DNA of 39,792 bases, taken from NCBI GenBank assembly GCA_050015895.1, contig JBEKAN010000002.1, positions 1 through 39,792 on the forward strand, given 5' to 3'. The position numbers and the translations under genes were made by a program. Positions 1 to 29,660 of the stretch are shown here, in pieces. How positions within the stretch are numbered: position 1 is the first letter of the stretch; every line of letters begins with the position of its first letter. This DNA is from Verrucomicrobiota bacterium (GTDB lineage: Bacteria > Verrucomicrobiota > Verrucomicrobiia > Limisphaerales > Palsa-1400). Below the pieces are notes generated by a model. The model saw nothing but the letters and a program-made list of their open reading frames with translations, was not told the DNA's origin and searched no databases.

Positions 1-560
1 CGGAAGCGCACAGCAACCTGGGAAACGCGCTTCTGCAAAAAGGCAGAGTGGACGAAGCGATCAGCCACTGTCAAAAGGCCCTGCAAATCAACCCGAACTA
101 CGCGGACGCCCACAACAACCTCGGCACCGCTCTTCTGCGAAAAGGCGGAGTGGACGAAGCGATCACCCAATTCCAGGAGGCCCTGCGAAACAAGCCTGAC
201 CTCACGGAAGCCCACTGCAGCCTCGGCACCGCTCTTCAGCAAAAAGGAAAAGTGGATGAAGCGATCAGCCAGTACCAAGAGGCCCTGCAAATCAAGCCCG
301 ACTACTCGGAAGCCCACAACAACCTCGGCAACGCTCTTCTGCAAAAGGGAAAAGTGGATGAAGCGATCAGCCAATGCCAAAAGGCCCTGCAAACCAATCC
401 AGACTTCACGGAAGCGCATTGGAATCTCGGCAACGCTCTGCTGCAAAAGGGCAGAATGGACGAGGCGATCACCCAATACCAAGAGGTCCTACGAATCAAG
501 CCCGACCTCGCGGAAGCCCGCAACAACCTCGGCAGAGTCCTGGTCCTTAAAGGAGATTTG
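1..560 (+). repeat. Intragenic 102-nt periodic tandem repeats (one TPR unit per repeat)
   Basis: ggaaaagtggatgaagcgatcagcca occurs at 246 and again at 348, exactly 102 nt apart, and the flanking unit sequence is highly similar. The same periodicity recurs in the TPR blocks of the other seven genes. Confidence 0.8.
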
Positions 561-1121
561 GACGGGGCGATGGCCTGCTTCCAAAAAAGCACCACCATCA
601 ACCCGAACCAGGAGGAGGCCTGGTATTATCTCGGTATTCTCCTTCTGCAAAAGGGGGATTTCGACCAAGCGATTGTGTCCTGTCGCCAGGCGCTAAAAAT
701 CAACCCCCGCTCGGCCGACACTTACGACAATCTCGGTGTGGCTTTATCGCAGAAAGGGCAAGCCAAGGAGGCGATCGACGCCTGGCAAAAGGCCTTGGAA
801 ATCAAGCCGGACCAACTCCACGTCCTGAACAACCTGGCGTGGCTGCTGGCGACCACCCCCGACGCGTCGCTGCGCGACGGGGCAAAAGCCGTCGCGCTGG
901 CCAAGCAGGCCGACCAGTTGAGCGGGGGCGGCAATCCGATGGTCCTGCACACCCTGGCGGCAGCGCGCGCGGAGACGGGGGATTATGCGCTGGCGGCGAC
1001 CACCGCCCAGCGCGGCCTGGAGTTGGCGGTGGAGCAGAAGAACGACGCGCTGGCCGCGACATTGCAAAGGGAAGTCCAACTTTACGAGACAGGCAAGCCG
1101 GAGCGAGAGGCGCCTCCCTGA
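1..1121 (+). CDS. TPR-repeat protein, 3' part of a gene that begins upstream of the window (member of the tandem paralogue family)
   Basis: Frame 3 is open from base 3 (EAHSNLGNALLQKGRVDEAI...), so the tracked ORF 48..1121 is only an internal GTG. It holds about seven 34-aa TPR units (AEAHxNLGxALxxKGxxDEAIxxYQxALxIxPD), then the family C-terminal module NNLAWLLATTPDASLRDGAKAVALAKQADQLSGGGNP...LQREVQLYETGKPERE. Stop TGA at 1119-1121. Confidence 0.9.
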   Translation, partial: EAHSNLGNALLQKGRVDEAISHCQKALQINPNYADAHNNLGTALLRKGGVDEAITQFQEALRNKPDLTEAHCSLGTALQQKGKVDEAISQYQEALQIKPDYSEAHNNLGNALLQKGKVDEAISQCQKALQTNPDFTEAHWNLGNALLQKGRMDEAITQYQEVLRIKPDLAEARNNLGRVLVLKGDLDGAMACFQKSTTINPNQEEAWYYLGILLLQKGDFDQAIVSCRQALKINPRSADTYDNLGVALSQKGQAKEAIDAWQKALEIKPDQLHVLNNLAWLLATTPDASLRDGAKAVALAKQADQLSGGGNPMVLHTLAAARAETGDYALAATTAQRGLELAVEQKNDALAATLQREVQLYETGKPEREAPP

Positions 1122-1152
1122 GCGCGCAATTTGAGATTTGAAGGTTGCAACC

Positions 1153-3576
1153 ATGTCAGACAGCACTACAGAAGAGGGGAAAGCGGCGGCAAATGAAGGC
1201 GGGAGCCGCTGGACGCGCTGGGCCGTTTTGGGCGCCGTCTGCGCGCTGGTCGTCGGGTTTTACGCCTGGAGCGCCAAGTCGGGAGTGTTGGAGTTGACGG
1301 GGTCCGGGCCGCAGGACAGCTACTACAACCTGCAGGTGCGGGGGTTTCGCGACGGCCAGCTCAACGTGAAACGGGAGGCGCCCCCCGGCCTCGCCCAGCC
1401 CGGCGCCCCTGCCGCCCTGACTTGGGGGGACAATGTGATCGCTGGTTCCGCCGACCTGAGTTATTACAAGGGAAAACTCTATTTGTATTTTGGCGTCACC
1501 CCCGCGTTGCTGCTCTTCTGGCCGTATGCGGCGCTGACGGGCCATTATCTGGCGCACAAGGACGCGGTGGTGATTTTCTTCTCGGTGGGTTTTCTGGCGG
1601 GCGCGGGCCTGCTGTGCGCGGTGTGGCGGCGTTATTTCAAGGAAACCAGTCTTGGGGTCGTGGCGGCCGGGGCGCTGGCGCTCGGCCTGGCCAATCTGAC
1701 ACCGGCGATTTTGGAGGGTTGTGATGTTTATGAAGTGGCGATCAGTTGCGGGTATGCCCTAACCATGCTGGCGCTGGCGGGAGTTTGGGGGGCCTTGCAG
1801 AACGCGCGGCGACGGTTGTGCTGGCTGGCTGCGGCCAGTCTGGCCTACGGATTGGCCGTGGGGGCGCGCCCCTCGCTGTTGTTTGGGGCGGTGATTCTTC
1901 TGGTTCCCGTGGCGCAGGAGTGGCGGGAGAGACGCCGGGTGTGGCCCTTATTGCTGGCGGCAGGCGGCCCGATTGTGGCGATTGGGGTGGGGCTGATGGT
2001 TTACAACGCGTTGCGGTTTGACAATCCGCTGGAATTCGGCCAGCGCTACCAGTTGCCTGTCAGCGCGCATCAACAGTTCAGCCCACGCTTCTTCTGGTTC
2101 AATTTCCGGGTGGGTTTCCTCGAGCTGGCGCGTTGGAGTCTCCGTTTTCCCTTTGTGCATGACATTTCGCCGCCGACGCAGCCAACCCGCTATTTCGGTT
2201 TGGATCATCCCTTTGGAGTTTTGACCAATATGCCGGTGGTCTGGATGGCACTGGCCGCGCCGCTGGTCTGGCGGGGCTGGTCGGGGGAAGGGCGCTCCCC
2301 TTTGCGCTGGTTTTTCGGGGCGGTGGCTCTGCTTTTCGCGGTGTGCGCTCTGACCCTTTGTCTCCACGATTCCATGTACCTGCGCTATGAGTTGGAGTAT
2401 GCCTCCCCGCTGATGCTGCTGGCGGTCGTGGGCATTCTGGCTTTGGAGCGCGGCCTGCCGGGCCGGCCGGTTTGGCGGCGGGCCGCGCGCTGTGGTTGGG
2501 GTTTGTTGCTGGCCTTATCGGTGGCCTTCAACTTGTTTGCAAGCTTTCAATTACAGGCGGACACCCACACATTCTTCGGTGACGCCCTTCTGCAAAAGGG
2601 GAATGTGGACGAGGCGATCAGCCAATTCCAAACGGCCCTGCGAATCGAGCCGGACAACGCGTCCGCCCACAACAACCTCGGCAACGCCCTGGAGCAAAAG
2701 GGAAGATTGGACGAGGCGATCCTCCAATACCACAATTCGCTGCAACTCCAGCCGGAGCACGCGGAAACCTACTGCAACCTCGGCAACGCGCTTCTGAAAA
2801 AGGGCAGCGTGGAGGAAGCGATCCGCCAACTTCAAAAGGCCCTGCAAATCAAGCCGGACTTCGCGGCCGCGCGTTACAACTTGGGCAACGCCTTTCTGCA
2901 ATCGGGCAGTTTGGACGAGGCGATCACCCAATACCAGAAGGCCCTGGAAATCAATCTGGATTACGCGGACGCCCACCACAACCTGGGCACCGCTCTTTTG
3001 CGAAAGGGCAGAGTGGACGAAGCGATCACCCAATATCAAGATGCGCTGCAAATCAAGCCGGACCTTGAGGATGCCCGCCACAATCTGGGGATGGCTTATT
3101 TCCAAAAGGGGGATTTGGAGAAAGCCATTGAGTGCTATCAGGAGGCGATAAAAATCAACCCCCGCTCGGCGGACGCTTACGCCAATCTCGGCCTGGCATT
3201 CTTCAAGAAAAGGGAAATCAAGCAAGCCGTGGACACCTGGGAAAAGGCATTGGTAATCAAACCGGAGCAACTCTTTGTTCTCAACAATCTGGCGTGGTTG
3301 CTGGCGACAACCCCCGACGCGTCCCTGCGCGACGGGGCAAGAGCCGTCACGCTGGCCAAGCAGGCCGACCAGTTGGGCGGAAACAGCAATCCGATGATGC
3401 TGCACACGCTGGCGGCGGCGTACGCCGAGACGGGGGATTATGCGCTGGCGGCCGCGACCGCGCGGCGCGGTCTGGATTTGGCGGTGGAGCAAAAGAACAA
3501 CGCGCTGGCGGCGACGCTGCAAAGGGAAATCCAACTTTACGAGGCGCAAACGCCGCTCAGAGACGAGCCGCGGTAG
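1153..3576 (+). CDS. Type-A paralogue: about 12-TM membrane domain (GT-C-like, family unassigned) fused to a TPR block and the conserved C-terminal module
   Basis: ATG at 1153 (MSDSTTEEGK); the tracked ORF starts at TTG 1138. About 12 hydrophobic segments by eye. Acidic motif SGPQDSYYNL directly after TM1 and DLSYYKGKLYLYFGVTPALLLFWPY. TPR units begin near residue 480 (GDALLQKGNVDEAISQFQTALRIEPD...). The C-terminal module NNLAWLLATTPDASLRDGARAVTLAKQADQL is present. Stop TAG at 3574-3576. Confidence 0.85.
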   Translation: MSDSTTEEGKAAANEGGSRWTRWAVLGAVCALVVGFYAWSAKSGVLELTGSGPQDSYYNLQVRGFRDGQLNVKREAPPGLAQPGAPAALTWGDNVIAGSADLSYYKGKLYLYFGVTPALLLFWPYAALTGHYLAHKDAVVIFFSVGFLAGAGLLCAVWRRYFKETSLGVVAAGALALGLANLTPAILEGCDVYEVAISCGYALTMLALAGVWGALQNARRRLCWLAAASLAYGLAVGARPSLLFGAVILLVPVAQEWRERRRVWPLLLAAGGPIVAIGVGLMVYNALRFDNPLEFGQRYQLPVSAHQQFSPRFFWFNFRVGFLELARWSLRFPFVHDISPPTQPTRYFGLDHPFGVLTNMPVVWMALAAPLVWRGWSGEGRSPLRWFFGAVALLFAVCALTLCLHDSMYLRYELEYASPLMLLAVVGILALERGLPGRPVWRRAARCGWGLLLALSVAFNLFASFQLQADTHTFFGDALLQKGNVDEAISQFQTALRIEPDNASAHNNLGNALEQKGRLDEAILQYHNSLQLQPEHAETYCNLGNALLKKGSVEEAIRQLQKALQIKPDFAAARYNLGNAFLQSGSLDEAITQYQKALEINLDYADAHHNLGTALLRKGRVDEAITQYQDALQIKPDLEDARHNLGMAYFQKGDLEKAIECYQEAIKINPRSADAYANLGLAFFKKREIKQAVDTWEKALVIKPEQLFVLNNLAWLLATTPDASLRDGARAVTLAKQADQLGGNSNPMMLHTLAAAYAETGDYALAAATARRGLDLAVEQKNNALAATLQREIQLYEAQTPLRDEPR

Positions 3577-3606
3577 GAAGGCTGTTTCAAACGTGAAAGG
3601 AGAAAT

Positions 3607-6054
3607 TTGAAAACCGGCGGCACACCAGAAGAAAAAAAGGGGGCGGCAATTGGAGGCGGGATCGGATGGACGCGCCGCGCCGTCCTGGGCGCGGTCTGCG
3701 CGGCGGTCATCGGGGTTTATGCCTGGAGCGCGCACCCGGGATTTGTGGAGTCCTTGGGATCGGGCGCGGAGGACCACTACTACAATCTGCTGGTGCGGGG
3801 TTTTCGGGAGGGCCAACTGAACGTGAAACTGGAGGCGCCGCCCGGACTGGCGCGGACTGGCGGGACCACGGACGGGAGGATCGAACGCAACCGGTCCGGC
3901 GATCCGGGATTGGACACGGACCGGCTGGTGGACCTGAGTTATTACAAAGGGAAACTGTATCTGTTTTTTGGGGCGACCCCCGCGCTGGTACTGTTCTGGC
4001 CGTATGCGGCGGTGACCGGCCATTATCTGGCGCACAAGGACGCGGTGGTGATTTTTTTCTCGGTGGGATTTCTGGCGGGCGCGGGTCTGCTGTGCGCGGT
4101 GTGGCGGCGTTGTTTCAAGGAAACAAGCTTCGGGTTGCTGGTGTGCGGCACATTGGCTCTGGGTCTGGCCAATTTGGCACCGGCGATATTGGGTCGGAGT
4201 GATGTGTATGTAGTGGCGATCAGTTGCGGGTATGCGCTGACGATGCTGGCGCTGGCCGGGGTTTGGGGCGCGTTGGAGGACGCGGGGCGTCGTTGGCTCT
4301 GGCTGGCGGCGGCCAGTCTGGCCTACGGCCTGGCCTTGGGGGCGCGCCCCGGTCTGTTGTTTGGGGCGGTCATCCTGCTGGTTCCCGTGGCGAAGGCGTG
4401 GCAGGAGAGGCGTTCGGTGTGGCGGTTGTTGCCGGCGGCGGGCGGCCCGGTTGTTTTGATGGGGCTGGGGATCCTGGTTTACAACGCGATGCGTTTCGAC
4501 CACGCGCTGGAATTCGGGCAGCGCTACCAACTACCGATCACCGCGCACCACCAGTTCAGTCCGAGCTACCTCTGGTTCAATTTCCGGGTTGGTTTTCTGG
4601 AGGCGGCGAACTGGACCCGTGGGGTTCCCTTCGTGTATGACATGAATCTGCCGGCGCAGCCGAGCCGCTATTTCGGTGTGGATCATCCCTTTGGAGTTCT
4701 GACCAACATCCCGGTGGTCTGGCTGGCGCTGGCGGCGCCGCTGGCGTGGCGCGGCCGGTCGGGGGAGGAGCGATCCCTGTTGCGCTGGTTTTCCGGGGCG
4801 GTGGCTCTGCTATTCGGGACCTGCGCCCTGACGCTGTGTCTCCACGATTCCATGTGTCTGCGCTACGAGTTGGAGTATGCGTCCCCGCTGGTCTTGCTGG
4901 CGGTCATTGGCCTTCTTGGTTTGGAGCGCACCCTGGCCGGGCAACCGGTTTGGCGACAAGCCGCCCGGTGCGGTTGGGGTTTGTTGCTGGTCTTTTCAGC
5001 GGCGTTCAACTTGTTGGCGAACTTCAACTTGCAAGCGGACGTCCACCTCGGGAGCGGGATAATGTTTCTGAAATCGGGCAAAGCGGAGGAAGCGATCGCC
5101 CAGTACCAAACGGCCCTGCAACTGGACCCGGGCTACGCGGAAGCCCACTACGACCTCGGCAACGCTCTCCGGCAAAAAGGCGGGTTGGACCTAGCGATCA
5201 CCCAATATCACGCGGCGCTGCAAATCAAGCCGGACTACACGGAAGCCCACAACAACCTGGGCAATGCTCTGCTCGCAAAGGGAGATCTGGAGGAGGCGAT
5301 CGCGGAATACCGCAAGGCCTCGCAAACCGATCCCGGCAACGCCCAATTCCACCTCAATTTGGGTCTTGCTCTTTCGGCCAGTGGAGATGTGAATGGAGCC
5401 ATCGCGCAATACCGGGACGTGCTGGCCATCCAGCCCAATTTCGCCGCCGTCCGCGACAACCTGGGCAGTGCTCTTCTCCTGAAAGGAGATGTGGACGGGG
5501 CGATCGCCTGTTTCAAAGAAACCGCCGCCATGAACCCGGACCAGGAGGAGGCGTGGTATAATCTCGGCAACGCCCTCCTGCAAAAGGGGGATTTGGACCC
5601 AGCCATCGCGTCGTTTCGCAAGGCGCTCCAAATCGCCCCCCGCTCGGCGGAGGCTTGCGGCAACCTCGGGGTGGCTCTGTTCCAGAAAGGGGAGACCCGG
5701 GAGGCGATGGACTCCTGGCAGAAGGCGCTGGAAATCCAGCCCGACCAAGTCAACGCCCTGGTCAACTTCGCCTGGTCTCTGGCGACGACCCCCGACGCCA
5801 CACTGCGGGATGGGGCGAAAGCCGTGGCGCTGGCCGGGCGGGCCAGCCAATTGAGCGGGGGCGGCAATCCGGCCATATTGCGCATACTGGCGGCGGCTTA
5901 CGCGGAAGAGGGAAACTACGAGCGGGCGGCAGGGACGGCCCGGCGCGCCGCGGAGTTGGCGGCGGGTCAAAAGAACCAGACGCTGGCCGCCACGCTGCAA
6001 CAGGAGATCAAACTCTACGAGGCGGGCAAGCCGGCGCTGGGAGCGCGGCCGTGA
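3607..6054 (+). CDS. Type-A paralogue (second copy): 12-TM GT-C-like domain plus TPR block plus conserved C-terminal module
   Basis: TTG start at 3607, 4 nt after AAGGAG (3597-3602). Long identical stretches with the previous gene (HYLAHKDAVVIFFSVGFLAGAGLLCAVWRR, DLSYYKGKLYLFFGATPALVLFWPY, SGAEDHYYNL). TPR units and the module FAWSLATTPDATLRDGAKAVALAGRASQLSGGGNP are present. Stop TGA at 6052-6054. Confidence 0.85.
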   Translation: MKTGGTPEEKKGAAIGGGIGWTRRAVLGAVCAAVIGVYAWSAHPGFVESLGSGAEDHYYNLLVRGFREGQLNVKLEAPPGLARTGGTTDGRIERNRSGDPGLDTDRLVDLSYYKGKLYLFFGATPALVLFWPYAAVTGHYLAHKDAVVIFFSVGFLAGAGLLCAVWRRCFKETSFGLLVCGTLALGLANLAPAILGRSDVYVVAISCGYALTMLALAGVWGALEDAGRRWLWLAAASLAYGLALGARPGLLFGAVILLVPVAKAWQERRSVWRLLPAAGGPVVLMGLGILVYNAMRFDHALEFGQRYQLPITAHHQFSPSYLWFNFRVGFLEAANWTRGVPFVYDMNLPAQPSRYFGVDHPFGVLTNIPVVWLALAAPLAWRGRSGEERSLLRWFSGAVALLFGTCALTLCLHDSMCLRYELEYASPLVLLAVIGLLGLERTLAGQPVWRQAARCGWGLLLVFSAAFNLLANFNLQADVHLGSGIMFLKSGKAEEAIAQYQTALQLDPGYAEAHYDLGNALRQKGGLDLAITQYHAALQIKPDYTEAHNNLGNALLAKGDLEEAIAEYRKASQTDPGNAQFHLNLGLALSASGDVNGAIAQYRDVLAIQPNFAAVRDNLGSALLLKGDVDGAIACFKETAAMNPDQEEAWYNLGNALLQKGDLDPAIASFRKALQIAPRSAEACGNLGVALFQKGETREAMDSWQKALEIQPDQVNALVNFAWSLATTPDATLRDGAKAVALAGRASQLSGGGNPAILRILAAAYAEEGNYERAAGTARRAAELAAGQKNQTLAATLQQEIKLYEAGKPALGARP

Positions 6055-11071: not shown

Positions 11072-13476
11072 AGGCGGAGAACTTGAAACCAGCAACCTCA
11101 ACAGCGACCCCGGAGGCAAGAAGCCCGCAGGCCTTGCCGGCGTTCTGCATTTGCATTTTTCTGGCGCTGGCGGTTCTGGCCGTCTTTTGGCAGACGGCGC
11201 ATTTTGAGTTCGTCAATTACGATGACGAAAAGAATGTGTATGAGAACCCGGTGGTGCAAAAGGGGTTGTCCCTCAACGCGGTGGGCTGGGCCTTCACGCA
11301 CTTGCAAGTCGCCAACTGGATTCCCCTGACCACTCTCTCGCATATCCTGGACTGCCAGCTCTTCGGGTTGCATGCGGGCGGGCATCACCTGGTCAATGTG
11401 TTCTGGCACGCCGCCAGCGCGGTGCTGCTGTTCCTGGTGTCGCGGCGGATGACCGGCGCCCTCTGGCGGAGCGCGTTTGTGGCGGCGGTGTTCGCCGTCC
11501 ACCCGCTGCGGGCGGAGTCGGTGGCGTGGGTGTCGGAGCGCAAGGACGTGCTGAGCGCGTTTTTTTTCATGTTGACAATTGGAGCTTATGTCCGGTTTGT
11601 GGAAAAGCAGAAAGCATCCGCCTCCGCCAAGGCCACGGCGGACAAGACGGCGGACAGAGAAAGCAGAGATTGGAACAACAGGACGAATTGCGCCATTCGG
11701 CGCGGGCGGAGATTTTATTATACCCTGGCTTTGGTGTTTTTCGCGCTGGGACTGCTGGCCAAGAGCATGGTGGCCACGCTGCCCTTTGTGCTGTTGCTGC
11801 TGGATTACTGGCCGCTGGGAAGGATGAGGGGAATGGAGAATTTAGAATTTAGAATGCAGAATGGGGAAAGCAGAAAGCAGAAACCGGTCAGAGGAGAGGC
11901 GGGAAGCGAGGGGGTTCCGTTTTGGGGGTTGGTGAGGGAGAAGATTCCGTTCTTCGCGCTGGGGGCGGGAGTGTGCGTGGCGACGGCCCTGGCGCCGGGA
12001 CTGGTGGTCCGGAACACCCATGCGGCGCCACTCCCGGAACGCGCCGCCAACGCCCTGGTTTCTTGCGCGGTGTATCTGCGGCAAATGGTGTTCCCGGCGA
12101 ATTTGGCGACGCCTTATCCCAATCCCCCAAACGGTCAGCCGCCCTGGGAAGTCTGCCTGGCGTTTGCCGTATTGGCCGCCATCTCCGCGGCGGTGGTCGT
12201 GTGCCGGAAAAAGCGGCCCTGGCTGCTGATGGGCTGGCTCTGGTATCTGGGGATGGTGTTTCCGGTGATTGGGATCATTCAAATCTCCCCCGACACCGCG
12301 CATGCCGACCGCTACACGTATCTGCCGCAGATCGGTCTGGCGCTGGCGGGGACCTGGGCGGTGGCGGAATGGGGCGCGGGGTGGAAATATCGGCGCGAGA
12401 TTTTTGGCGCCTTGATGATCGCGGTGGTGGGCGCGTTGATGGTGTGCGCCCACCGCCAGACCTCGTATTGGCAGGACCCCGAATCCCTCTGGACGCGGGC
12501 GCTGGCCCGCACCTCCAACAACAGCGTCGCACACAATAACATCGGCCACGCTCTGTTCCAAAAGGGCAAGCTGGAGGAGGCCGTCGGCCACTACAAACAG
12601 GCCCTCGAAATCAATACCAATTATGCGCAGGCCCATTACAATCTGGGGGTGGTTTGTCTCAAGCAGAATGACACGGACGGCGCGATCGCGGAATTCATAA
12701 GGGCCATGCGGGTCAGGCCGGACTACATGGAGGCCCACTTCGACCTCGGCACGGCTCTGGCCCTCAAGGGCGATCTGGACGAGGCCATCCTGGAGTACAA
12801 AACGGCCCTGGAGATTGAGCCGGATTTTGTGCAGGCCAATTACAATCTGGGCAAGGCCCTTCTCCTCAAAGGGGATGTGGACCCAGCCATGTCTTGTCTG
12901 TCCAAGACCATCCCTGTGAGCCAGGACCCGCTGGCGAATTGGTACAACTTCGGCAACGGATTCCTCCAAGAACCGGATCCCTCGTGCGCCATCGTCTGCT
13001 ACCGGCAGGCGATAAAAATCAACCCCCGCTTTGCGGACGCTTACGCCAATCTGGGAGTGGCTTTGTCCCAGAAAGGGGAAACCAAAGAGGCCCTGGACTC
13101 GTGGCAAAAGGCCTTGGAAATCAATCCCGCCCAGATCTATGTCCAAAACAACCTGGCGTGGTCGCTGGCGACAACTCCCGACGCCACCCTGCGCAACGGC
13201 GCAAAAGCCGTCGCGCTGGCGACCCAGGCCAACCAGTCGAGCGGGAGCGGCAATCCGGCGATATTGCGCACGCTGGCGGCGGCTTATGCCGAGACGGGGG
13301 ATTGCGCGCGGGCGGCCACAACGGCGCGGCGCGCCCTGGAGTTGGCGCAGGGGCGGAAGAACGACGGGCTGGCGGCCACGTTGCGGGAGGAACTCAAACT
13401 CTACCAGGCGGGCAAGCCGGCGCGGGACATCCCGCCGAAGGAAAACAAGCCCACAGCGCCGGACGCGCCGCCGTGA
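11068..13476 (+). CDS. Type-B (alpha subtype) paralogue: TMTC/DUF1736-like GT-C domain plus TPR block plus conserved C-terminal module
   Basis: TTG 11068 overlaps the upstream stop as TTGA (MKAENLKPATSTATPEAR). Motifs: FEFVNYDDEKNVYENPVVQKGLS, ANWIPLTTLSHILDCQLFGLHAGGHHLVNVFWH, AVHPLRAESVAWVSERKDVLSAFFF. A variable loop KASASAKATADKTADRESRDWNNRTNCAIRRGRRFYY. TPRs and the C-terminal module are present. Stop at 13474-13476. Confidence 0.88.
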   Translation: MKAENLKPATSTATPEARSPQALPAFCICIFLALAVLAVFWQTAHFEFVNYDDEKNVYENPVVQKGLSLNAVGWAFTHLQVANWIPLTTLSHILDCQLFGLHAGGHHLVNVFWHAASAVLLFLVSRRMTGALWRSAFVAAVFAVHPLRAESVAWVSERKDVLSAFFFMLTIGAYVRFVEKQKASASAKATADKTADRESRDWNNRTNCAIRRGRRFYYTLALVFFALGLLAKSMVATLPFVLLLLDYWPLGRMRGMENLEFRMQNGESRKQKPVRGEAGSEGVPFWGLVREKIPFFALGAGVCVATALAPGLVVRNTHAAPLPERAANALVSCAVYLRQMVFPANLATPYPNPPNGQPPWEVCLAFAVLAAISAAVVVCRKKRPWLLMGWLWYLGMVFPVIGIIQISPDTAHADRYTYLPQIGLALAGTWAVAEWGAGWKYRREIFGALMIAVVGALMVCAHRQTSYWQDPESLWTRALARTSNNSVAHNNIGHALFQKGKLEEAVGHYKQALEINTNYAQAHYNLGVVCLKQNDTDGAIAEFIRAMRVRPDYMEAHFDLGTALALKGDLDEAILEYKTALEIEPDFVQANYNLGKALLLKGDVDPAMSCLSKTIPVSQDPLANWYNFGNGFLQEPDPSCAIVCYRQAIKINPRFADAYANLGVALSQKGETKEALDSWQKALEINPAQIYVQNNLAWSLATTPDATLRNGAKAVALATQANQSSGSGNPAILRTLAAAYAETGDCARAATTARRALELAQGRKNDGLAATLREELKLYQAGKPARDIPPKENKPTAPDAPP
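11831..11864 (+). repeat. AT-rich heptamer tract GAATGGA GAATTTA GAATTTA GAATGCA GAATGG
   Basis: One substitution relative to the 9177 copy; followed immediately by AAGCAGA x2 (11868-11881). Confidence 0.85.
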
Positions 13477-13508
13477 GCGGGCCATTTGCAATCGGAGAGC
13501 GGAATCCA

Positions 13509-15785
13509 ATGCGCCGAACATCCAAGCCAGCCACGGGAGGGAAAGAAGCGCGCGCGGCCCCGTCGGCAAGCCGTCCGGCGGGCTTGGCGGAAGGCTGGAC
13601 GGTTCTCGCCGTCTGCCTTTTTCTGGTGGCTGTCATCTGGGTGGTCTTTGGGCGGACGACGCGCTTCGGGTTCGTCAATTACGATGACGGGACCTACGTG
13701 TCGGACAACGCCCTGGTCACGGGCGGTCTGACCCCGCGGGGCGTCGCATGGGCGTGGACTCATGTGATCTGCAATTTCTATCACCCGCTGACCATGCTCT
13801 CGCTGATGCTGGATTTTCAATTTCACAAGCTCAACGCCGGCGGGTATCACCTCACCAATGTCCTGATACACACCGCCTCCTCCGTCCTGCTGTTCCTGGT
13901 TTTGAGGCGGATGACCGGCGCGCTCTGGCGCAGCGCGTTTGTGGCGGCGGTGTTCGCCATCCACCCGCTGAGGGCGGAGTCGGTGGCGTGGGTGACGGAG
14001 CGCAAGGATGTGCTGGGCGCGTTCTTTTTCATGCTCACGCTCGGGGCTTATGTGCGGTATGCGCGCAAACCGAACTCCCTGGGTCGCTATCTGGCGGTGG
14101 TGGCGCTCTTCGGGTTGGGGCTGCTCTGCAAGCCGACGGCGGTGACCCTGCCGTTTGTGCTGTTGCTGCTGGATTACTGGCCGCTGGGAAGGATGGGGGG
14201 AATGAAGAATTTAGAATTTAGAATGCAGAATGGAGAAAGAGGAGAGCACGGAAGGCCCGGGGTTCCGTTTTGGGGGTTGGTGAGGGAGAAGATTCCCTTG
14301 CTGGCGCTGGCGGCGGTTTCCTGCGTGGTGGCTTACTTTGCGCAAGGGAAGGCGGTCGAGTCCGTCGCATACGCTTCCATCCCCACGCGGATCGGCAATG
14401 TTTTGATTTCCTACGTGGTCTATCTGCGCCAGTTGGTGTGGCCGGCGGATCTGGCCGTGTATTATCCCTATCCGCAGAAAAGCCCCGCACTTGGGGAAGT
14501 CGCTTTGGCGTTTCTGCTGCTGGCCGTCATTTCCGCGGGAGTTTTGGCCTCTTTCCGAAAGCGCCCCTGGCTTCTAACCGGCTGGCTTTGGTATTTGGGA
14601 ATGCTGGTTCCGGTCATCGGCATTGTTCTGGTCACGCCAACCGCGCACGGGGATCGCAACACCTACTTGCCCCACATCGGCCTGGCTGTGCTGCTGACTT
14701 GGGCGGTGTGCGACATCTCCGCCGGCTGGCGTCACCGCCGCGCGCTCCTGGGCGCGTTGGCCGCCGGCGCGCTGGTTGCCCTGGTTCTCCTCGCCCGCGC
14801 GCAGACTTCTTACTGGCATGACAGCGAATCCCTGTGGAGGCGCGCGCTGGACCGCACTTCCGACAACCCCGCCGCGCACAACGGCCTGGCGACGGCTCTC
14901 CGCGACAAGGGGGATGTGGACGGAGCCATAGCCGAATACCGAAAAGCCCTGGCGCTCAATCCCTACTATGGGGAGAGCTTCGTCAATTTGGGCGTGGCTC
15001 TGGCGCTCAAGGGGGATCTGGACGGAGCCATCGCGCAATACCAACAAGCCCTCCAGATCAAGCCCGACTATATGGAAGCCCACTTTGATCTGGGCACGGC
15101 GCTGGGACTCAAGGGCAGTCTCGATGAGGCAGTCGCCCAATTCCGCAAGGTCTTGGAACTGAGGCCCGATTATCCGCGGGCCGACTACAATCTGGGCAAG
15201 GTCCTCCTCCTCAAAGGAGATTTGGACCCGGCCATGGACTGTCTGGCCAAAACCACCGCGGTGAGCCAGGACCCCCTGGCAAATTGGTACAACTTCGGCA
15301 ACCAATTCGTGCAAGAACGGGATTGGCAATGCGCCATTGTCTGCTATCGGCAGGCGACGAAAATCAATCCCCGCTTTGCGGACGCTTACGCGAATCTGGG
15401 CGTGGCTTTGTCCCAGAAAGGGGAAACCAAAGAGGCCCTGGACTCGTGGCAAAAGGCCTTGGAAATCAACCCCGGCCAGCTCTATGTGCAGAACAACTTG
15501 GCGTGGTCGCTGGCCACGACCGCCGACGCCTCCCTGCGCAACGGCGCAAAAGCCGTCGCGCTGGCCCAACAGGCGGAGCATCTGAGCGGGGGCGGCAATC
15601 CGGCGATTCTGCGCACCCTGGCGGCGGCGTACGCCGAGACGGGGGATTATGCGTCCGCGGCCTCGACGGCCCGGCGCGCCCTTCAGTTGGCGGTGGCGCA
15701 GAAGAACGAAGGGCTGGCCGCGACGCTGCAAAAGGAAATCCAACTCTACGACGCGGCCAAGCCGGCGCGGGAGACGCCGCCGTGA
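13509..15785 (+). CDS. Type-B (beta subtype) paralogue: TMTC/DUF1736-like GT-C domain plus TPR block plus conserved C-terminal module
   Basis: In-frame ATG at 13509 (MRRTSKPATGG); an in-frame GTG at 13473 overlapping the upstream stop is the alternative. Motifs: FGFVNYDDGTYVSDN, FYHPLTMLSLMLDFQFHKLNAGGYHLTNVLIH, AIHPLRAESVAWVTERKDVLGAFFF. TPRs and the C-terminal module are present. Stop TGA at 15783-15785. Confidence 0.85.
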   Translation: MRRTSKPATGGKEARAAPSASRPAGLAEGWTVLAVCLFLVAVIWVVFGRTTRFGFVNYDDGTYVSDNALVTGGLTPRGVAWAWTHVICNFYHPLTMLSLMLDFQFHKLNAGGYHLTNVLIHTASSVLLFLVLRRMTGALWRSAFVAAVFAIHPLRAESVAWVTERKDVLGAFFFMLTLGAYVRYARKPNSLGRYLAVVALFGLGLLCKPTAVTLPFVLLLLDYWPLGRMGGMKNLEFRMQNGERGEHGRPGVPFWGLVREKIPLLALAAVSCVVAYFAQGKAVESVAYASIPTRIGNVLISYVVYLRQLVWPADLAVYYPYPQKSPALGEVALAFLLLAVISAGVLASFRKRPWLLTGWLWYLGMLVPVIGIVLVTPTAHGDRNTYLPHIGLAVLLTWAVCDISAGWRHRRALLGALAAGALVALVLLARAQTSYWHDSESLWRRALDRTSDNPAAHNGLATALRDKGDVDGAIAEYRKALALNPYYGESFVNLGVALALKGDLDGAIAQYQQALQIKPDYMEAHFDLGTALGLKGSLDEAVAQFRKVLELRPDYPRADYNLGKVLLLKGDLDPAMDCLAKTTAVSQDPLANWYNFGNQFVQERDWQCAIVCYRQATKINPRFADAYANLGVALSQKGETKEALDSWQKALEINPGQLYVQNNLAWSLATTADASLRNGAKAVALAQQAEHLSGGGNPAILRTLAAAYAETGDYASAASTARRALQLAVAQKNEGLAATLQKEIQLYDAAKPARETPP
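14200..14233 (+). repeat. AT-rich heptamer tract, identical to the 9177 copy
   Basis: gaatgaagaatttagaatttagaatgcagaatgg, read directly. Confidence 0.85.
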
Positions 15786-15799
15786 GGAGCAACTGAAAT

Positions 15800-18115
15800 T
15801 TGAAAGCGGAAAGCGCCATTTTGAAACCGGCGAATCCGGATGGGACGCGGAGGGCAAATATCCCACAAGTGTGGCTGGCGCCGGGCGTTTGCGTCTTTCT
15901 GGTCCTCGCGGTTCTGGGCGTGTTTGCGCAGACGGCGCGGTTCGACTTCATCAATTACGACGACGGGTTGAACGTGAGTCAGAACCCGGTGGTGCGGAAG
16001 GGGTTGTCCGTCCAGGCGGTGGGCTGGGCCTTTGCTCATCCGCAGGCGGCCAACTGGGTGCCTCTGACCACTCTTTCGCATATCCTGGATTGCCAGCTCT
16101 TCGGGTTGCATGCGGGCGGGCATCACTTGGTCAATGTGTTCTGGCACGCCGCCAGCGCGGTGCTGCTGTTCCTGGTGTTGCGGCGGATGACCGGCGCCCT
16201 CTGGCGGAGCGCGTTTGTGGCGGCGGTCTTCGCCGTGCATCCCTTGCGGGCGGAGTCGGTGGCGTGGGTGTCGGAGCGCAAGGACGTGTTGAGCGCGTTT
16301 TTTTTCATGTTGACAATCGGCGCTTATGTCCGGTTTGTGGAAAAGCGGAAAGAACAAAGCGGAGATTGGAACAACAGGACGAATTGCGCCATTCAGCGCG
16401 GGCGGAGATTTTATTATACGCTGGCATTGGTGTTTTTCGCGCTGGGACTAATGGCCAAGAGCATGGTGGCCACGCTGCCCTTTGTGCTGTTGCTGCTGGA
16501 TTACTGGCCGCTGGGGAGGATGGGGGGAATGAAGAATTTAGAATTTAGAATGCAGAATGGAGAAAGAGGAGAGCAGGGAAGGCCCGGGGTTCCGTTTTGG
16601 GGGTTGGTGAGGGAGAAGATTCCGATGTTCGCGATGGCGGCGGCAGTGTGCGTGGCGACGGCGCTCATGCCGGGTATGGTGCTCGGGGACGCCCAACGAC
16701 TGGCGCTCGCGGACCGCGTCGGCAACGCCCTGGTTTCCTATGGGGTCTATCTGCGGCAAATGATTTTCCCGGCGCGACTGGCCATCCCCTACCCCATCGC
16801 GCCCACTGGTCAGCCGCCGTGGAAGGTCTGTCTGGCGTTGGTCATTTTGGCCGCAATTTCCGCGGGGGTCATTGCGTTTCGGAAGAAACGTCCCTGCCTG
16901 CTGACCGGCTGGCTCTGGTACCTGGGAATGTTGGTCCCGGTCATCGGCATCCTCCAAATCTCCAAGGATTCCGCCCATGCCGACCGCTACACCTATCTGC
17001 CACAGATCGGATTGGCGCTGGCGGGGACTTGGGCGGTGGCGGATTGGAGCGCGGGCTGGAAATATCGGCGCGAGATTTTGGGCGCGTTGATGACGGCGGT
17101 CATCGCGGCGTTGATGGTGTCCGGCCATCGCCAGACATCGTATTGGAAAGACAGCGAATCGCTCTGGACTCACACCCTTTCCTGCACCTCCTCCAACATG
17201 GTGGCCTGCGACAACCTGGCCGCCGATCTGGCCCAGAAGGGCCGCTTGAATGATGCCATCGCGCAATACCAAAACGCGCTGGAAATCGCGCCCGATGACG
17301 AGGGCACGCGAAACAACCTGGGGGCCGCACTTTTTCTCAACAACGATCTGGAGGGGGCCATCGCCCAATACCGAAAAGTCATCGAGTTGAATCCCGCCTA
17401 CGAAAACGCCCACTGCAATCTGGGGATTGCCCTGGCGCGAAAGGGAAACGTGGAGGAGGCCATCGCGCAATACAGAGAAGCCCTGGATCTCAAGCCGGAC
17501 GATGAGTCGGCGCTCAGGAACCTGGGCGACGCTCTTCTCAAGTCCGGCCAACTGGACGAGGCCCCCGCCCAATACCGCAAGGCCCTGGACCTGAATGCCG
17601 AGGACGAGGAGGCCCGCTCGAACCTCGGCAGAGCCTTGCTGCAAAAGGGGGATTTGGAACAAGCCATTGTGTGCTATCAGCAGACGTTAAAACTAAACCC
17701 CCGCTCGGCGGACGCATACGACAATCTCGGCCTGGCTTACTTCAAGAAATCGGAAATCAAGCGGGCCGTGGACGCATGGCAGCAGGCGCTGCAAATCAAG
17801 CCCGACCAACTCTACGTTCTGAACAACCTGGCGTGGCTGCTGGCCACGACCGCCGACGCCTCGCTCCGCGATGGCGCAAAAGCCGTCGCGCTGGCCAAAC
17901 GGGCCGACCAGTTGAGCGGGGGCGGCGATCCGATGATCCTGCACACCCTGGCGGCCGCTTGCGCCGAGACGGGGAGTTATGAGCTGGCGGCCGCCACGGC
18001 GCGGCGCGGTTTGGAGTTGGCGGTGGCGCAAAAGAACGACGCGCTGGCCGCGACGCTGCAAAAGGAAATCAAACTCTACGAGTCGGGCAGCCCGGCGCGG
18101 GATCCGGCGCGATGA
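15800..18115 (+). CDS. Type-B (alpha subtype) paralogue: TMTC/DUF1736-like GT-C domain plus TPR block plus conserved C-terminal module (last gene of the array)
   Basis: TTG at 15800 (MKAESAILKPANPDG), 14 nt after the upstream stop. Motifs: FDFINYDDGLNVSQNPVVRKGLS, GGHHLVNVFWHAASAVLLFLVLRRMTG, AVHPLRAESVAWVSERKDVLSAFFF. TPRs and NNLAWLLATTADASLRDGAKAVALAKRADQLSGGGDP are present. Stop TGA at 18113-18115. Confidence 0.88.
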   Translation: MKAESAILKPANPDGTRRANIPQVWLAPGVCVFLVLAVLGVFAQTARFDFINYDDGLNVSQNPVVRKGLSVQAVGWAFAHPQAANWVPLTTLSHILDCQLFGLHAGGHHLVNVFWHAASAVLLFLVLRRMTGALWRSAFVAAVFAVHPLRAESVAWVSERKDVLSAFFFMLTIGAYVRFVEKRKEQSGDWNNRTNCAIQRGRRFYYTLALVFFALGLMAKSMVATLPFVLLLLDYWPLGRMGGMKNLEFRMQNGERGEQGRPGVPFWGLVREKIPMFAMAAAVCVATALMPGMVLGDAQRLALADRVGNALVSYGVYLRQMIFPARLAIPYPIAPTGQPPWKVCLALVILAAISAGVIAFRKKRPCLLTGWLWYLGMLVPVIGILQISKDSAHADRYTYLPQIGLALAGTWAVADWSAGWKYRREILGALMTAVIAALMVSGHRQTSYWKDSESLWTHTLSCTSSNMVACDNLAADLAQKGRLNDAIAQYQNALEIAPDDEGTRNNLGAALFLNNDLEGAIAQYRKVIELNPAYENAHCNLGIALARKGNVEEAIAQYREALDLKPDDESALRNLGDALLKSGQLDEAPAQYRKALDLNAEDEEARSNLGRALLQKGDLEQAIVCYQQTLKLNPRSADAYDNLGLAYFKKSEIKRAVDAWQQALQIKPDQLYVLNNLAWLLATTADASLRDGAKAVALAKRADQLSGGGDPMILHTLAAACAETGSYELAAATARRGLELAVAQKNDALAATLQKEIKLYESGSPARDPAR
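16527..16560 (+). repeat. AT-rich heptamer tract, identical to the 9177 copy
   Basis: gaatgaagaatttagaatttagaatgcagaatgg, read directly. Confidence 0.85.
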
Positions 18116-18143: not shown

Positions 18144-19355
18144 TTACTGTTTGACGAGCCGAAGCGCCAGCACATCGTGTCCCCGCACCTCGGCGCTCAA
18201 TGGCTCCCGCGTCGTGCCGAGATTCCTCTTCATCCACAGATCGCGGATTTTGTAGGAAGTGGTGTCGAATCTGGTTTCCCGGTTTGAAATGTCGTCGGCC
18301 ACTTTTTCGCTCTTCCAGTCGAAGACGAACTTCCGCGGGTCGGGGTTTCGGTTCAGAACGCACATCGCCCATGCGTCATGGGCCAGAGGCTTGAACCAAA
18401 CCTCAACGCCGTCTTTGGCCGAATACCGCAATGCCTCGATCCCAAGGGGGTCCTGGTCGAGCGCGATCACGTCCTTGTCCGTCAGAATTTTTAGCGTCTG
18501 CGGATTCATCCGGCGCAGATCGTTGCCGGAAATCAGCGGCGCGGCCAGCATGCACCACAGGGTGAAGTGCGCGCGGTCCTCGCTGTCCGTCATGCCGTTG
18601 CCCACCTCCAGCATGTCCGGGTCGTTCCAGTGGCCGGGGCCGGCGTATTTGCGCAAGGGGACCTGTTTGTCGAGGATTTCCATGACGCCGTAATCGCTGT
18701 ATCCGGGGTGCGCGCGATTTTTGTCGAAACTGGCGTAAATGTCGCCGGTGGTGCGCCAGGACTGCCCCACATCTTTGGCCCAGGTCCAGGGCTGGCTGTT
18801 GCCCCATTCGCACAGGCTGAAGAAGATGGGCCGTCCGGCGGCGCGGAGGGCGTCGCTCATTTTCTTGTAGGCGTCCGGCGCTTTGAGGCCCTGGACATTG
18901 CACCAGTCGTATTTGAGATAATCCACCCCCCAGGACGCGTAGGTCTTCGCGTCCTGGAACTCATGGTCCCGGCTGCCGGGCCGCCCGGCGCAGGTCTTTG
19001 TGCCGGCGTCCGAATAAATTCCGAACTTGAGTCCTTTGGAGTGAACGTAGTCGGCCAGCGCCTTGATGCCGGAGGGAAACCGTTTTGGATCCGCCGTGAT
19101 GTTCCCCGCCGCGTCACGCTCCCCCTGCCAGAGGTCGTCGAGGTTGACGTATTGGTATCCCGCCTCTTTCATGCCGTTGGTCGCCATCGCGTCGGCGATT
19201 TGGCGGACCAACTGCTCGCTGACCTGGCCTTGGAATTTATTCCAACTGTTCCAGCCCATCGGCGGGGTCAGCCCCAGTTGCCCGGACTTCGGGGCGCGCC
19301 CGCTGACGCAGCCGGCGCAGGCCGAACAGATGACAATCCAAAGAATTGGTCTCAT
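18144..19355 (-). CDS. GH27 alpha-galactosidase (secreted)
   Basis: Motifs: [59 protein letters not shown]. The likely start is the ATG at 19355 ([16 protein letters not shown] signal-like N-terminus) rather than the ORF maximum at 19430. This ATG overlaps the upstream stop as ATGA. Confidence 0.9.
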
Positions 19356-19648
19356 AACGGGGAAGACACGGGGGCGAACTTCACCGAGGCGCGCGGTTCG
19401 GACATCATGGCGGCAACGGTGTCGCGCCATTTCTGGTAGTGCGCGGTTTCCTTGTGCGCGGCGGGGGCGCCGGCGTCGCGGTAGATTTCGACCAGCACGA
19501 AGCGCGAGGGGTCGTCGAGCTGTTGGATGACGTCGAAACTGGCGACGCCCGGCTCGCGCGCGCTTTGGCGGGCGTTCTCCAAGGTGGCTTGCTTGAAGGG
19601 TTCGATGAATTCGGGCTTCAGATGCGCGTGGACGTGGATGATGAGCAT
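19352..19648 (-). CDS. ABM-fold (antibiotic biosynthesis monooxygenase / YgiN-like) small protein, 98 aa
   Basis: [78 protein letters not shown] is the typical ferredoxin-like ABM pattern. Start ATG at 19648; the 90-aa upstream part of the tracked ORF lacks support. Confidence 0.75.
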
Positions 19649-20981: not shown

Positions 20982-21101
20982 TTCGATTTTTGCTTGATCC
21001 ATCGGGGTCACATCTTGCTATGGGCTGACATCTATTTCAAGCAACGTCAATGTGAACCTAGCTGATTGAATAAGTGTCGCACTAAATTTCTTGAGAACTC
21101 A

Positions 21102-24058: not shown

Positions 24059-24064
24059 AGCTTC

Positions 24065-25375: not shown

Positions 25376-25668
25376 CTTTTGCCGGCAACAAGAGGTTTCG
25401 CCTCTGGTTTGTCAGCCGTCCAACTACTCCAAATTGACGGAAATGGGTTCGTTTTCCCACTTGTCGGCATCATTAAAATCTCCATAAGTGCCTCACTTTG
25501 AACGGCTTTTGAATCTTTCGATTTGGGTTCGTTTTGCAAAAAACACTTTCTTTGATCAAACTCTCTCCGAACCCTCCATCGTGAGGGGCGGCGGAGCGTG
25601 GGACACATAGGTCTCAGCCACTTGCGGCCCCACCGCCCCGCCGCACCGCCTCCAAGCCGTTCCGTCCG

Positions 25669-26478: not shown

Positions 26479-26603
26479 ATATGATTTAATAGTTGTACGT
26501 GAATGTTGACGAGGCCACCCTCTGGGCTGGCCCCGGTGATCATCGGCGCGACACACATCGCATCCTTCACGCTCGCAATTGGATCATACTTTTTGAAAAG
26601 TTC

Positions 26604-26620: not shown

Positions 26621-26624
26621 CAAC

Positions 26625-26849: not shown

Positions 26850-26861
26850 TTAGCTTCGAAA

Positions 26862-29038: not shown

Positions 29039-29063
29039 GGCGAAGACGATTTTCCCAGGCCCG

Positions 29064-29642: not shown

Positions 29643-29660
29643 TTGGACAGGAATATAAAG

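Follow-up and report, generated by a model that had tools for sequence, protein, structure and literature searches.

A mixed tandem array of predicted GT-C glycosyltransferase genes with a shared tetratricopeptide repeat cassette in Verrucomicrobiota

Introduction

What do eight paralogous genes lying head to tail on one strand encode, and how did they come to differ from one another? We asked this of a 39,792-bp stretch of DNA (~62% GC; hereafter the window) that forms part of contig JBEKAN010000002.1 in assembly GCA_050015895.1, from a Verrucomicrobiota bacterium of the Limisphaerales lineage Palsa-1400. The genes fill its first 18,115 bp, and their products combine a polytopic membrane domain with a block of tetratricopeptide repeats (TPRs). 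Here, we report that the membrane domains are of two types, each with a predicted GT-C glycosyltransferase fold, that the 3′ halves of the genes bear the marks of exchange between paralogues, and that large mixed arrays of this kind are a regular feature of Verrucomicrobiota. A preliminary description of the same DNA had proposed a battery of periplasmic protein glycosyltransferases akin to the eukaryotic TMTC1–4 enzymes. Much of the architecture that it outlined is borne out below, and several of its more specific statements are revised.

Results

Eight paralogous genes share a three-part architecture

A listing of open reading frames (ORFs), together with alignment, placed eight paralogous ORFs on the plus strand of positions 1–18115, with no genes between them, as the preliminary description had it. 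Alignment of the eight products resolved three parts: a polytopic N-terminal domain of ~420–475 aa, a block of consensus-like TPRs, and a shared helical C-terminal module of ~105 aa (C-module). The membrane domain occurs in two unrelated-looking versions, termed type A (G2 and G3) and type B (G4–G8). The genes are laid out as follows, the assignment of each membrane domain to GT-C being predicted from the models described below:

G1, to 1121, plus strand: 3′ part of a gene (372 aa) whose 5′ end lies outside the window; 8 TPR units and the C-module.
G2, 1153–3576, plus strand (alternative start, TTG at 1138, plus strand): type A GT-C domain, aa 1 to ~468, then 7 TPR units and the C-module.
G3, 3607–6054, plus strand: type A GT-C domain, TPRs and the C-module; chimeric relative to a sister contig.
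G4, 6078–8498, plus strand (alternative start, GTG at 6051, plus strand, overlapping the G3 stop codon): TMTC-like GT-C domain of type B, spanning aa 1–~452, then 7 TPR units and the C-module.
G5, 8522–11071, plus strand (alternative start, GTG at 8495, plus strand): type B GT-C domain of the same subtype as G7, then 8 TPR units and the C-module.
G6, 11083–13476, plus strand (alternative start, TTG at 11068, plus strand): type B GT-C domain of the same subtype as G4 and G8, then TPRs and the C-module.
G7, 13509–15785, plus strand (alternative start, GTG at 13473, plus strand): type B GT-C domain of the same subtype as G5, then TPRs and the C-module.
G8, 15800–18115, plus strand: type B GT-C domain, then the C-module after 6 detected TPR units; the array ends with this gene.

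Every gene had been credited with a membrane domain. Such a domain was seen in seven; that of G1, and with it its type, falls outside the window, and the sister contig, which reaches 324 nt further, is likewise cut within G1. The C-module had also been recognized earlier as common to the array and is present in all eight genes (59–88% pairwise identity); its consensus across the aligned products is ..NNLAWLLATTPDASLRDGAKAV...LAAAYAETG...LAATLQ.EI.LY..G.P, and it has no Pfam family of its own.

The intergenic spacing is 14–30 nt. If the GTG or TTG starts chosen by the JGI gene caller on the sister contig are used, G3/G4, G4/G5, G5/G6 and G6/G7 instead overlap by 4 nt (NTGA). Overlaps of this length between start and stop codons are typical of translational coupling, and because of them the array would probably be expressed as an operon. 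A scan of the array for promoters and terminators returned one promoter-like site, on the wrong strand, and terminator-like matches that were weak and intragenic.

The junctions between genes have features of their own. At 6051, 8495, 11068 and 13473, a TTG or GTG start overlaps the preceding stop codon, and the junctions at 8498–8527 and 11058–11087 hold a 14–15-nt direct duplication, AGCGGAAAACTTGAA. Over 600 bp, the DNA spanning the end of G3 and the beginning of G4 shares 87.5% identity with that spanning the end of G5 and the beginning of G6. Conservation of this kind in the aligned sequences suggests that duplication units cross gene boundaries.

The type B membrane domain is TMTC-like

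Eukaryotic TMTC1–4 are GT105 protein O-mannosyltransferases of the endoplasmic reticulum that modify cadherins. Full-length prokaryotic homologues of these enzymes have already been noted (PMC7801869). The published motif map of the human enzymes comprises M1 (DD) and M2 (SHKSYRP) in loop 1, M3 (RxD) in loop 2, M4 (KE(T/Q)xxT) in loop 3, M5 (DW) in loop 4, M6 (PxxP) in transmembrane helix 9 (TM9) and M7 (ERxxY) in loop 5, with DUF1736 in the loop that connects TM7 to TM8 (PMC7801869). The type B domain is collinear with M1, M2, M3, M4, M6 and M7, amounting to five to six of the seven motifs, in the same order and at similar spacing. In G4 numbering, the counterparts are:

M1: DD47–48
M2: W-I-P-L79–82
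M3: R-K-D153–155
M4: K201....T206
M6: P369
M7: D-R-Y-T-Y384–388

All five window copies have the motif residues, which are 93–100% conserved among 107 homologues. The acidic pair in the first loop is D at position 47 in 102 of the 107 and at position 48 in 104 (95–97%), and it is DD in all five window copies; R153-K-D155 is 99–100% conserved, and D384-R-Y-T-Y388 93–100%. K201 (100%) and T206 (98%) stand at the right spacing, with S, N or P at the position of the M4 Glu. The motifs FxFxN[YC]DD, GG[HY]HLxNVxxH and HPLRxESVAWVxERKDVL, previously reported from five copies, are all found in G4–G8. The last had been taken for the DUF1736 signature, an assignment that fails: HPLRxESVAWVxERKD is the helix bearing the RxD of M3 in loop EL2, and no match to the DUF1736 model was obtained, an outcome that the preliminary description itself had named as a ground for refutation.

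We compared both membrane-domain types with family models. None of the seven window membrane domains matched PF08409 (DUF1736) at E ≤ 1, the presence of PF08409 in our copy of the library being unconfirmed; likewise unmatched were ten distant relatives of type B and another five array members taken from other genomes. Full-length scans against Pfam and NCBIfam yielded TPR families only, scans of the membrane parts alone gave nothing above threshold, and no NCBIfam model matched the membrane domain of either type. G4 was the sole window copy to match Pfam PMT, at 17.9 bits against a cutoff of 22.7, and the PMT_2 cutoff of 26.1 bits was passed by two type B relatives (33.7 bits at locus L075 and 31.3 at L054; a third, at L158, reached 25.8). 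Some close type B homologues carry the JGI name 'protein O-mannosyl-transferase'. Sequence searches of the PDB, run with single sequences and with profiles for both types, returned only noise, such as aquaporin and designed TPRs.

Structure comparison was more informative. The AlphaFold2 (AF2) model of the G4 membrane domain, in which we counted ~11 TM helices plus juxtamembrane helices, scored 87.9 for the predicted local distance difference test (pLDDT) and 0.90 for the predicted TM-score (pTM). When it was compared with the PDB by Foldseek, the top 11 and 21 of the 23 best matches were GT-C enzymes, namely Pmt4, AglB, ArnT, STT3, PglB, Pmt1/2 and DPY19, mostly with probability 1.0 and TM-scores of 0.36–0.51; the two other matches had probabilities of 0.72 and 0.25. 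As modelled, the type B membrane domain has a GT-C fold. Since the TMTC motifs are collinear, yet DUF1736 is not matched, type B is placed in the PMT/ArnT GT-C clan as a TMTC-like member lacking one feature by which the family is defined in hidden Markov model (HMM) searches. The TMTC-like architecture proposed earlier holds for type B, with 11 TM helices by our reading of the model, followed by TPRs and with DD, RKD, the loop-3 Lys and D-R-Y-T-Y retained.

Type B genes also contain degenerate heptanucleotide tandem repeats (GAATGNA, 4.4–7.4 copies, 80–84% matches). They encode a variable insertion in the TM6–TM7 loop (..GMKNLEFRMQNGE..), which is probably cytoplasmic and where AF2 confidence is low. 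The repeats lie at:

11831–11882, plus strand: GAATGCA, 7.4 copies, G6 TM6–TM7 loop insertion.
9177–9209, plus strand: equivalent repeat in G5.
14200–14237, plus strand: equivalent repeat in G7.
16527–16564, plus strand: equivalent repeat in G8.
6599–6629, plus strand: a further equivalent repeat.

Among homologues, insertions in this loop range from 0 to ~26 aa, often with a 7-aa period such as MQNAECRMQNAE, and nowhere are G7 and G8 more alike in DNA than in the repeat region (94.8% identity). Phase variation through these repeats was considered and set aside; they are degenerate, so present-day slippage is doubtful.

Type A represents a second GT-C chassis

The AF2 model of the G2 membrane domain reached a pLDDT of 90.5 and a pTM of 0.91. 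Its best Foldseek matches in the PDB were ArnT (5f15 and 5ezm), followed by AftA, AglB, STT3, DPY19, EmbA and AftD; against ArnT, the TM-score was 0.47–0.51 at a root-mean-square deviation of 6–6.8 Å over 427–449 aligned columns, with probability 1.0. Type A, too, has a GT-C fold on the strength of this model, so that the confident models of both membrane domains agree with the GT-C assignment made at the outset. At the level of sequence, the type A membrane part had no Pfam or NCBIfam match at E ≤ 1 and no HMM match in the PDB, and ten representatives of the type A family gave no Pfam match above threshold.

Type A has conserved motifs of its own: YYNL; D101-x-S-Y-Y-K-G; V-Y-E194; G-A-R239-P; N285..R288-F..P..E-F-G; and R411-Y-E. 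Among its kept residues are D101 (100% acidic), E194 (96%), R239, R288 and R411-Y-E. The acidic DD/ED pair expected in the first loop proved to be a property of type B (95–97% in the 107 homologues): type A has no such pair after TM1, its D55 in the first loop is D in only 68%, and its conserved loop-1 acid is D101 (100% D/E).

Helix order and loop charge in the models suggest for both types that the chain starts in the cytoplasm, crosses the membrane with 11 TM helices and ends in the periplasm, which would put the TPRs on the same side as the active site. Known GT-C enzymes have their active site on the periplasmic face and draw the sugar from a polyprenyl-phosphate-linked donor.

TPR blocks diverge most, and 3′ halves do not follow membrane-domain type

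TPR families from Pfam matched all eight genes strongly (E-values of 1e-40 to 1e-77). Rather than the 7–10 units announced before, 5–8 clear units were detected per protein, in a block ~7–8 units long that is followed by the TPR-like C-module. Across 52 extracted units, positional entropy is highest at the canonical positions 5, 9, 2 and 12. In TPR structures in general, these most variable positions line the concave binding face. Asn occupies canonical position 6 in 43 of the 52 units, and Asp in 4 more; in OGT, a comparable 'asparagine ladder' binds the backbone of extended substrate peptides (PMC11145291; bioRxiv 10.1101/2020.12.22.423982). The groove is probably functional and probably differs among the paralogues, and the pattern shows no more than that.

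It had been held that the catalytic and C-terminal parts are nearly identical while the TPR blocks differ. Divergence does peak in the TPR block, at 39–52% pairwise identity (65% for the exceptional pair G6/G7), but the other parts vary as well. Type B membrane domains are 54–75% identical to one another and fall into two subtypes, G4/G6/G8 and G5/G7; the two type A domains are 72% identical, and A and B share only ~21%, so that two membrane-domain types are mixed in one array, as had been noticed. C-modules show the 59–88% given above.

Similarity in the 3′ half is discordant with membrane-domain type. G6 and G7 are 65% identical in their TPR blocks and only 55% in their membrane domains, the C-modules of G4 and G5 are 88% identical against 58% for their membrane domains, and G2 and G8, a type A and a type B gene, have C-modules that are 76% identical. 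This discordance among the aligned sequences indicates that 3′ halves have been swapped between paralogues. When A1 and A2 were compared profile to profile, the TPR/C-terminal region that they share dominated the result, which is uninformative on homology of the two membrane domains.

A sister contig reveals a crossover in G3 and four further genes

JGI contig Ga0455671_0002330 (66 kb; locus L001) is a near-identical sister of the window that carries 12 array genes. It has no mismatches to the window over positions 1–5244 and two over 6035–11921, and between these matching stretches it holds an additional 8,759 bp (four genes), encoding two type A genes, a 473-aa polytopic protein and one type B gene. 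The last ~790 bp of the L001 genes for an 827-aa type A and an 857-aa type B protein differ at 43 sites only, and in the window the diagnostic sites switch from one copy to the other:

Near-identical gene ends: window 5245–6034; L001 5569–6358 and 14328–15117.
Crossover interval: window 5600–5747, plus strand; 148 bp identical in both L001 paralogue copies.

The window matches the first L001 copy through 5599 and the second from 5748, a single clean crossover that, given the switch between these positions, falls inside the 148-bp identical stretch. G3 of the window is a chimera, with its 5′ part from the 827-aa type A gene and its 3′ end from the 857-aa type B gene. It arose by homologous recombination within the population or else by an assembler jump over an exact repeat of read length, and the chimeric protein is not on record elsewhere by exact look-up in public assemblies. 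In either case, the crossover shows that the conserved 3′ module lets cassettes move between chassis.

The count of eight thus describes the window, and the JGI contig, which differs at two other aligned positions, has twelve, a version backed by pieces from three independent samples; copy number reads eight or twelve, with the upstream end open, and the existence of a large array is not in doubt. We consider it highly improbable that the array or its copy number is an artefact of collapsed or mis-joined repeats in a short-read metagenome. Such an error could account for an 8.76-kb difference between near-identical contigs whose breakpoints lie in 148 bp exactly common to two paralogues, a length over which a de Bruijn assembler can switch paths, and for a chimeric protein recorded in no other assembly. 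Against it, the paralogues inside the window share no more than 85–95% DNA identity over at most 600 bp and are resolvable by short reads, so that assembly of the window's own copies is not intrinsically suspect. The support of three samples for the 12-gene version and the presence of comparable arrays in many other metagenome-assembled genomes (MAGs), among them a 554-kb contig with 11 genes on one strand and one divergent gene, and a 21-kb locus filled by 9 genes, point the same way. Doubt is confined to the G3 junction (8 versus 12 genes), and the notion that the whole array is an artefact was rejected on the arrays in other MAGs and on the divergence of the paralogues.

The 473-aa polytopic membrane protein, encoded at L001 11120–12541, has no TPRs; it is embedded in the 12-gene version and absent from the window. 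It has no Pfam or NCBIfam match and no detectable similarity to type A, and it begins ..DIEFKYDEWFMFD.., reminiscent of the acidic motif in loop 1 of GT-C enzymes.

Mixed arrays recur across Verrucomicrobiota

Relatives of both types are numerous. For type B, at least 8,000 scored relatives were present in a protein collection clustered at 90% identity, and at least 595 loci in GTDB species representatives, distributed over Verrucomicrobiota, Planctomycetota, Desulfobacterota, Acidobacteriota and others; tandem sets of 2–5 genes within ±10 kb were frequent. Type A gave 1,876 scored relatives and at least 488 genome loci, mainly in Verrucomicrobiia and Opitutia, and its clusters at 50% identity numbered 4,460 at E ≤ 1e-3, 3,419 at E ≤ 1e-10 and 900 at E ≤ 1e-30. 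Head-to-tail arrays that mix A and B, with up to 11–12 genes, recur in other Verrucomicrobiota MAGs:

L112: BBBB-A-BBBB, 9 genes filling 21 kb.
L121, L125 and L158: mixed arrays.
CAVQOW010000017.1 (554 kb; L086 and L090): 11 same-strand genes over ~28 kb and one divergent type A gene.

Since they occur in many other MAGs, large mixed arrays are a regular feature of Verrucomicrobiota and no artefact of this window. Their frequency also bears on the earlier view of this array as unusual and functionally undescribed. That view needs tempering: tandem and mixed arrays are common in Verrucomicrobiota MAGs, and both prokaryotic TMTC homologues and the Pseudomonas aeruginosa enzyme TfpW have been published. 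Our search of the literature on bacterial DUF1736, GT105 and Verrucomicrobia TPR glycosyltransferase paralogues found no published description of such arrays.

Other Verrucomicrobiota fuse the same TPR block and C-module to further membrane domains:

L087, 17916–20486
L106, 8223–9941
L122, 5056–7341
L158, 19653–21338

One of these further chassis is more TMTC-like and keeps the KE motif (..HPLQTESVTY..RAES.., ..ASKEVMV..), and at least two have no family match. With one C-terminal cassette carried on several chassis, the cassette looks modular. At L162 (12316–16196), L163 (13524–19010) and L164, type B arrays are followed by TonB_2/ExbD/ExbB genes and a stand-alone PMT_2 protein of ~700 aa. 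The L162 array is additionally followed by exopolysaccharide genes (Bac_transf, a Wzc-like kinase and an exostosin-like glycosyltransferase), and the L163 array lies near a PEP-CTERM gene.

Genes beside the array

Downstream of G8 lie a GH27 enzyme, an ABM monooxygenase, a GH53 galactanase, an Imm26-like ORF and a beta-helix protein, and beyond them a polysaccharide cluster:

18144–19430, convergent to the array: GH27 alpha-galactosidase, the next gene after G8.
21066–21566, plus strand: ORF matching the Imm26 immunity protein.
21791–24058, minus strand: beta-helix protein of 755 aa, pectate-lyase/rhamnogalacturonase-like, with a match to the endosialidase N-terminal extension.
24065–39724, minus strand: Wzx-dependent polysaccharide biosynthesis cluster, 6 kb downstream of the array.
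36348–37475, minus strand: the only GT2 in the window, which resembles EpsE/TuaG/WcaA-type enzymes and belongs to this separate cluster.

A 772-aa ORF without matches on the opposite strand (22571–24889) is probably a shadow ORF. The first part of the Wzx-type cluster comprises a GT4, a hexapeptide acyltransferase, a Glyco_trans_1_2 (GT1-like) and a GT9-like protein, two methyltransferases and an FAD enzyme resembling L-2-hydroxyglutarate oxidase; the remainder holds a 491-aa protein without matches (32711–34183), a GT4, the GT2, a Wzx flippase and a DegT aminotransferase cut by the window end. No arn genes were found within the window.

Discussion

We propose, with about even confidence, that the array is a coupled operon of periplasmic GT-C transferases that use polyprenyl-phosphate sugars, act on acceptors selected by their TPRs and probably carry out protein O-glycosylation. 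Under this proposal, one long, translationally coupled transcript would yield a set of paralogous inner-membrane enzymes. The N-terminal GT-C domain, with its 11 TM helices, would move a sugar from a polyprenyl-phosphate-linked donor at the periplasmic face, and the solenoid of ~7–8 TPR units, with the conserved helical end-module, would lie on the same periplasmic side and select and position the acceptor. Two catalytic chassis would be in use, a TMTC/PMT-like one (type B) and an ArnT/Emb-like one (type A). The acceptors would most likely be extended stretches of exported proteins, and the paralogues would differ in acceptor and possibly, with the chassis (A or B), in the sugar donated. Homologous exchange would use both the gene junctions and the conserved 3′ module as substrates, shuffling TPR/C-terminal halves among catalytic domains and changing copy number. 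Protein acceptors are favoured because of the Asn ladder, the variable concave face, and the fact that both characterized relatives, TMTC1–4 and TfpW, glycosylate proteins. Three elements of the preliminary description, namely proteins rather than glycans as acceptors, mannose as the sugar, and the behaviour of the genes as a battery, are best treated as conjecture.

Comparison with known enzymes places the two chassis more precisely. Like TMTC1–4, type B combines a GT-C domain, read as having 11 TM helices, with TPRs that come after it and probably lie on the side of the active site; the motifs have the same order and similar spacing (M2 reads ..YRPL.. in TMTC and ..WIPL.. in type B). It differs in its unmatched PF08409, the replaced M4 Glu, a shorter EL4 region, the repeat-derived TM6–TM7 insertion and a C-module without a Pfam family; it is also bacterial, located in the inner membrane and massively tandem-duplicated, and its donor would be a bacterial polyprenyl-phosphate sugar. 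The only characterized bacterial GT-C and TPR fusion that we found is TfpW. This D-arabinofuranosyl transferase is required for glycosylation of the P. aeruginosa pilin; its N-terminus is cytoplasmic, 11 TM helices are predicted, the TPR domain at its C-terminus is periplasmic, and loop 1 contains a DDx motif; its best structural template was ArnT, and its TPR domain best matched that of OGT (bioRxiv 10.1101/2020.04.19.049825). Type B agrees with TfpW at the level of architecture (11 TM helices, periplasmic TPRs and DDx). TfpW, however, is a single gene directly downstream of that of its substrate, pilA, and has a dedicated D-arabinofuranose donor pathway, whereas the array has many paralogues and no adjacent pilin or donor-pathway gene.

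The best fold matches of type A, ArnT (GT83), AftA, Emb and AftD, show a layout of loops and charges that type A fits by reading. Type A has no sequence-level similarity to them and has its own conserved motifs, and the known enzymes have lipid A or arabinan as their substrates and no TPR domains. The PMT and PMT_2 enzymes (GT39) of fungi and actinobacteria share the GT-C fold and the acidic loop-1 pair with type B; Pmt4, Pmt1 and Pmt2 were among its top fold matches, and distant type B relatives pass PMT_2. In contrast, PMTs bear an MIR beta-trefoil domain in a loop and have no C-terminal TPRs, and the window copies score below threshold. OGT has consensus-like TPR units with a position-6 Asn ladder, but it is a soluble cytoplasmic GT-B enzyme using UDP-GlcNAc, and only the logic of substrate recognition is comparable. 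The array differs from three-component GtrA/GtrB/GT-C systems in that the window has no polyprenyl-phosphate GT2 synthase and no GtrA family match.

Several points weigh against the proposed O-glycosylation. The Glu of the TMTC motif KE(T/Q)xxT, which is modelled as a metal ligand, is replaced in type B; PF08409 went unmatched under the caveat given above; and the window copies stay below the Pfam thresholds for PMT and PMT_2. The window contains neither a GtrB/Ppm1/ArnC-like synthase for polyprenyl-phosphate sugars nor a flippase of the GtrA kind, and Pfam scans of the neighbouring ORFs found no candidate acceptor gene, such as a pilin, beside the array. Polysaccharide clusters adjoin this and another array, an arrangement just as compatible with a glycan acceptor. 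The topology is a reading of how the helices follow one another in the models and of charged loops under the positive-inside rule. Hypervariability of the concave face is common to TPR families generally and is not specific evidence of diversification here. Finally, enzymatic activity is a prediction for both families.

A serious alternative, though one that we regard as less likely, holds that the acceptors are glycans or glycolipids: the enzymes would add side-branch sugars to exopolysaccharide, O-antigen/lipopolysaccharide or peptidoglycan-linked polymers, with the TPRs docking export or assembly machinery. ArnT, GtrC-type and Emb/Aft enzymes add sugars to glycans or lipids in the periplasm, and TPR scaffolds are well established in polysaccharide export (BcsC, PgaA and AlgK). 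The best structural matches of type A (ArnT, AftA, Emb and AftD) are enzymes that modify lipids or glycans, a Wzx-type cluster with DegT, Wzx, GT2, GT4s, GT9 and methyltransferases lies 6 kb downstream, and the exopolysaccharide genes after the L162 array and the PEP-CTERM gene near that of L163 are in keeping with such a role. The cluster in the window, however, runs on the other strand, with unrelated hydrolase genes between it and the array, and dozens of differing TPR solenoids are hard to square with docking to one export machine. Both characterized GT-C and TPR fusions act on proteins, and an Asn ladder is typical of peptide-binding TPRs such as those of OGT (PMC11145291).

It is very unlikely, in our judgement, that the proteins are inactive transferases serving as membrane-anchored TPR scaffolds or chaperones for envelope assembly, with the GT-C-like domain reduced to a lipid-binding part or an anchor. 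The sub-threshold PMT and PMT_2 scores, the missing metal-binding Glu and the 68% conservation of D55 in type A would suit this explanation. It has to contend with positions corresponding to the catalytic and phosphate-binding sites of TMTC, ArnT and PMT, which are 92–100% conserved across more than 100 homologues that are otherwise 57–80% identical; we counted the following against inactivity:

Type B: DD, RKD, the loop-3 Lys and DRYTY.
Type A: D101, E194, R239, R288 and RYE.

The retention of these positions amid such divergence points to purifying selection on the active site, and, judged from these alignments, loss of catalytic function is unlikely. Doubtful is the idea that recombination-driven diversification is what the array is for, with conserved 3′ modules and junctions acting as crossover sites that shuffle TPR recognition cassettes among at least two unrelated GT-C chassis and alter the number of copies. 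If it were true, related strains would differ in their periplasmic glycosyltransferase repertoire and envelope glycosylation, for example under pressure from phages or grazers.

Bacterial relatives of enzymes that join GT-C domains to TPRs have been noted before and are essentially unstudied. Verrucomicrobiota expand such genes into operon-like arrays of 8–12, and the TPR/C-terminal cassette moves between catalytic chassis. Type A is a large GT-C family, with ~3,400 clusters at E ≤ 1e-10, that carries the same cassette, has no Pfam or NCBIfam model and deserves one; annotations that read only 'tetratricopeptide repeat protein' would, if the models are right, hide a glycosyltransferase. The value of the locus lies in this unmodelled family, in the scale and recurrence of the arrays, and in direct evidence of cassette exchange. 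If the proposed O-glycosylation acts on proteins, the capacity for periplasmic protein glycosylation in these bacteria of soil and peat would be far more elaborate than in any characterized bacterium, and the variation among their TPRs would be a natural library for studying how GT-C enzymes select acceptors.

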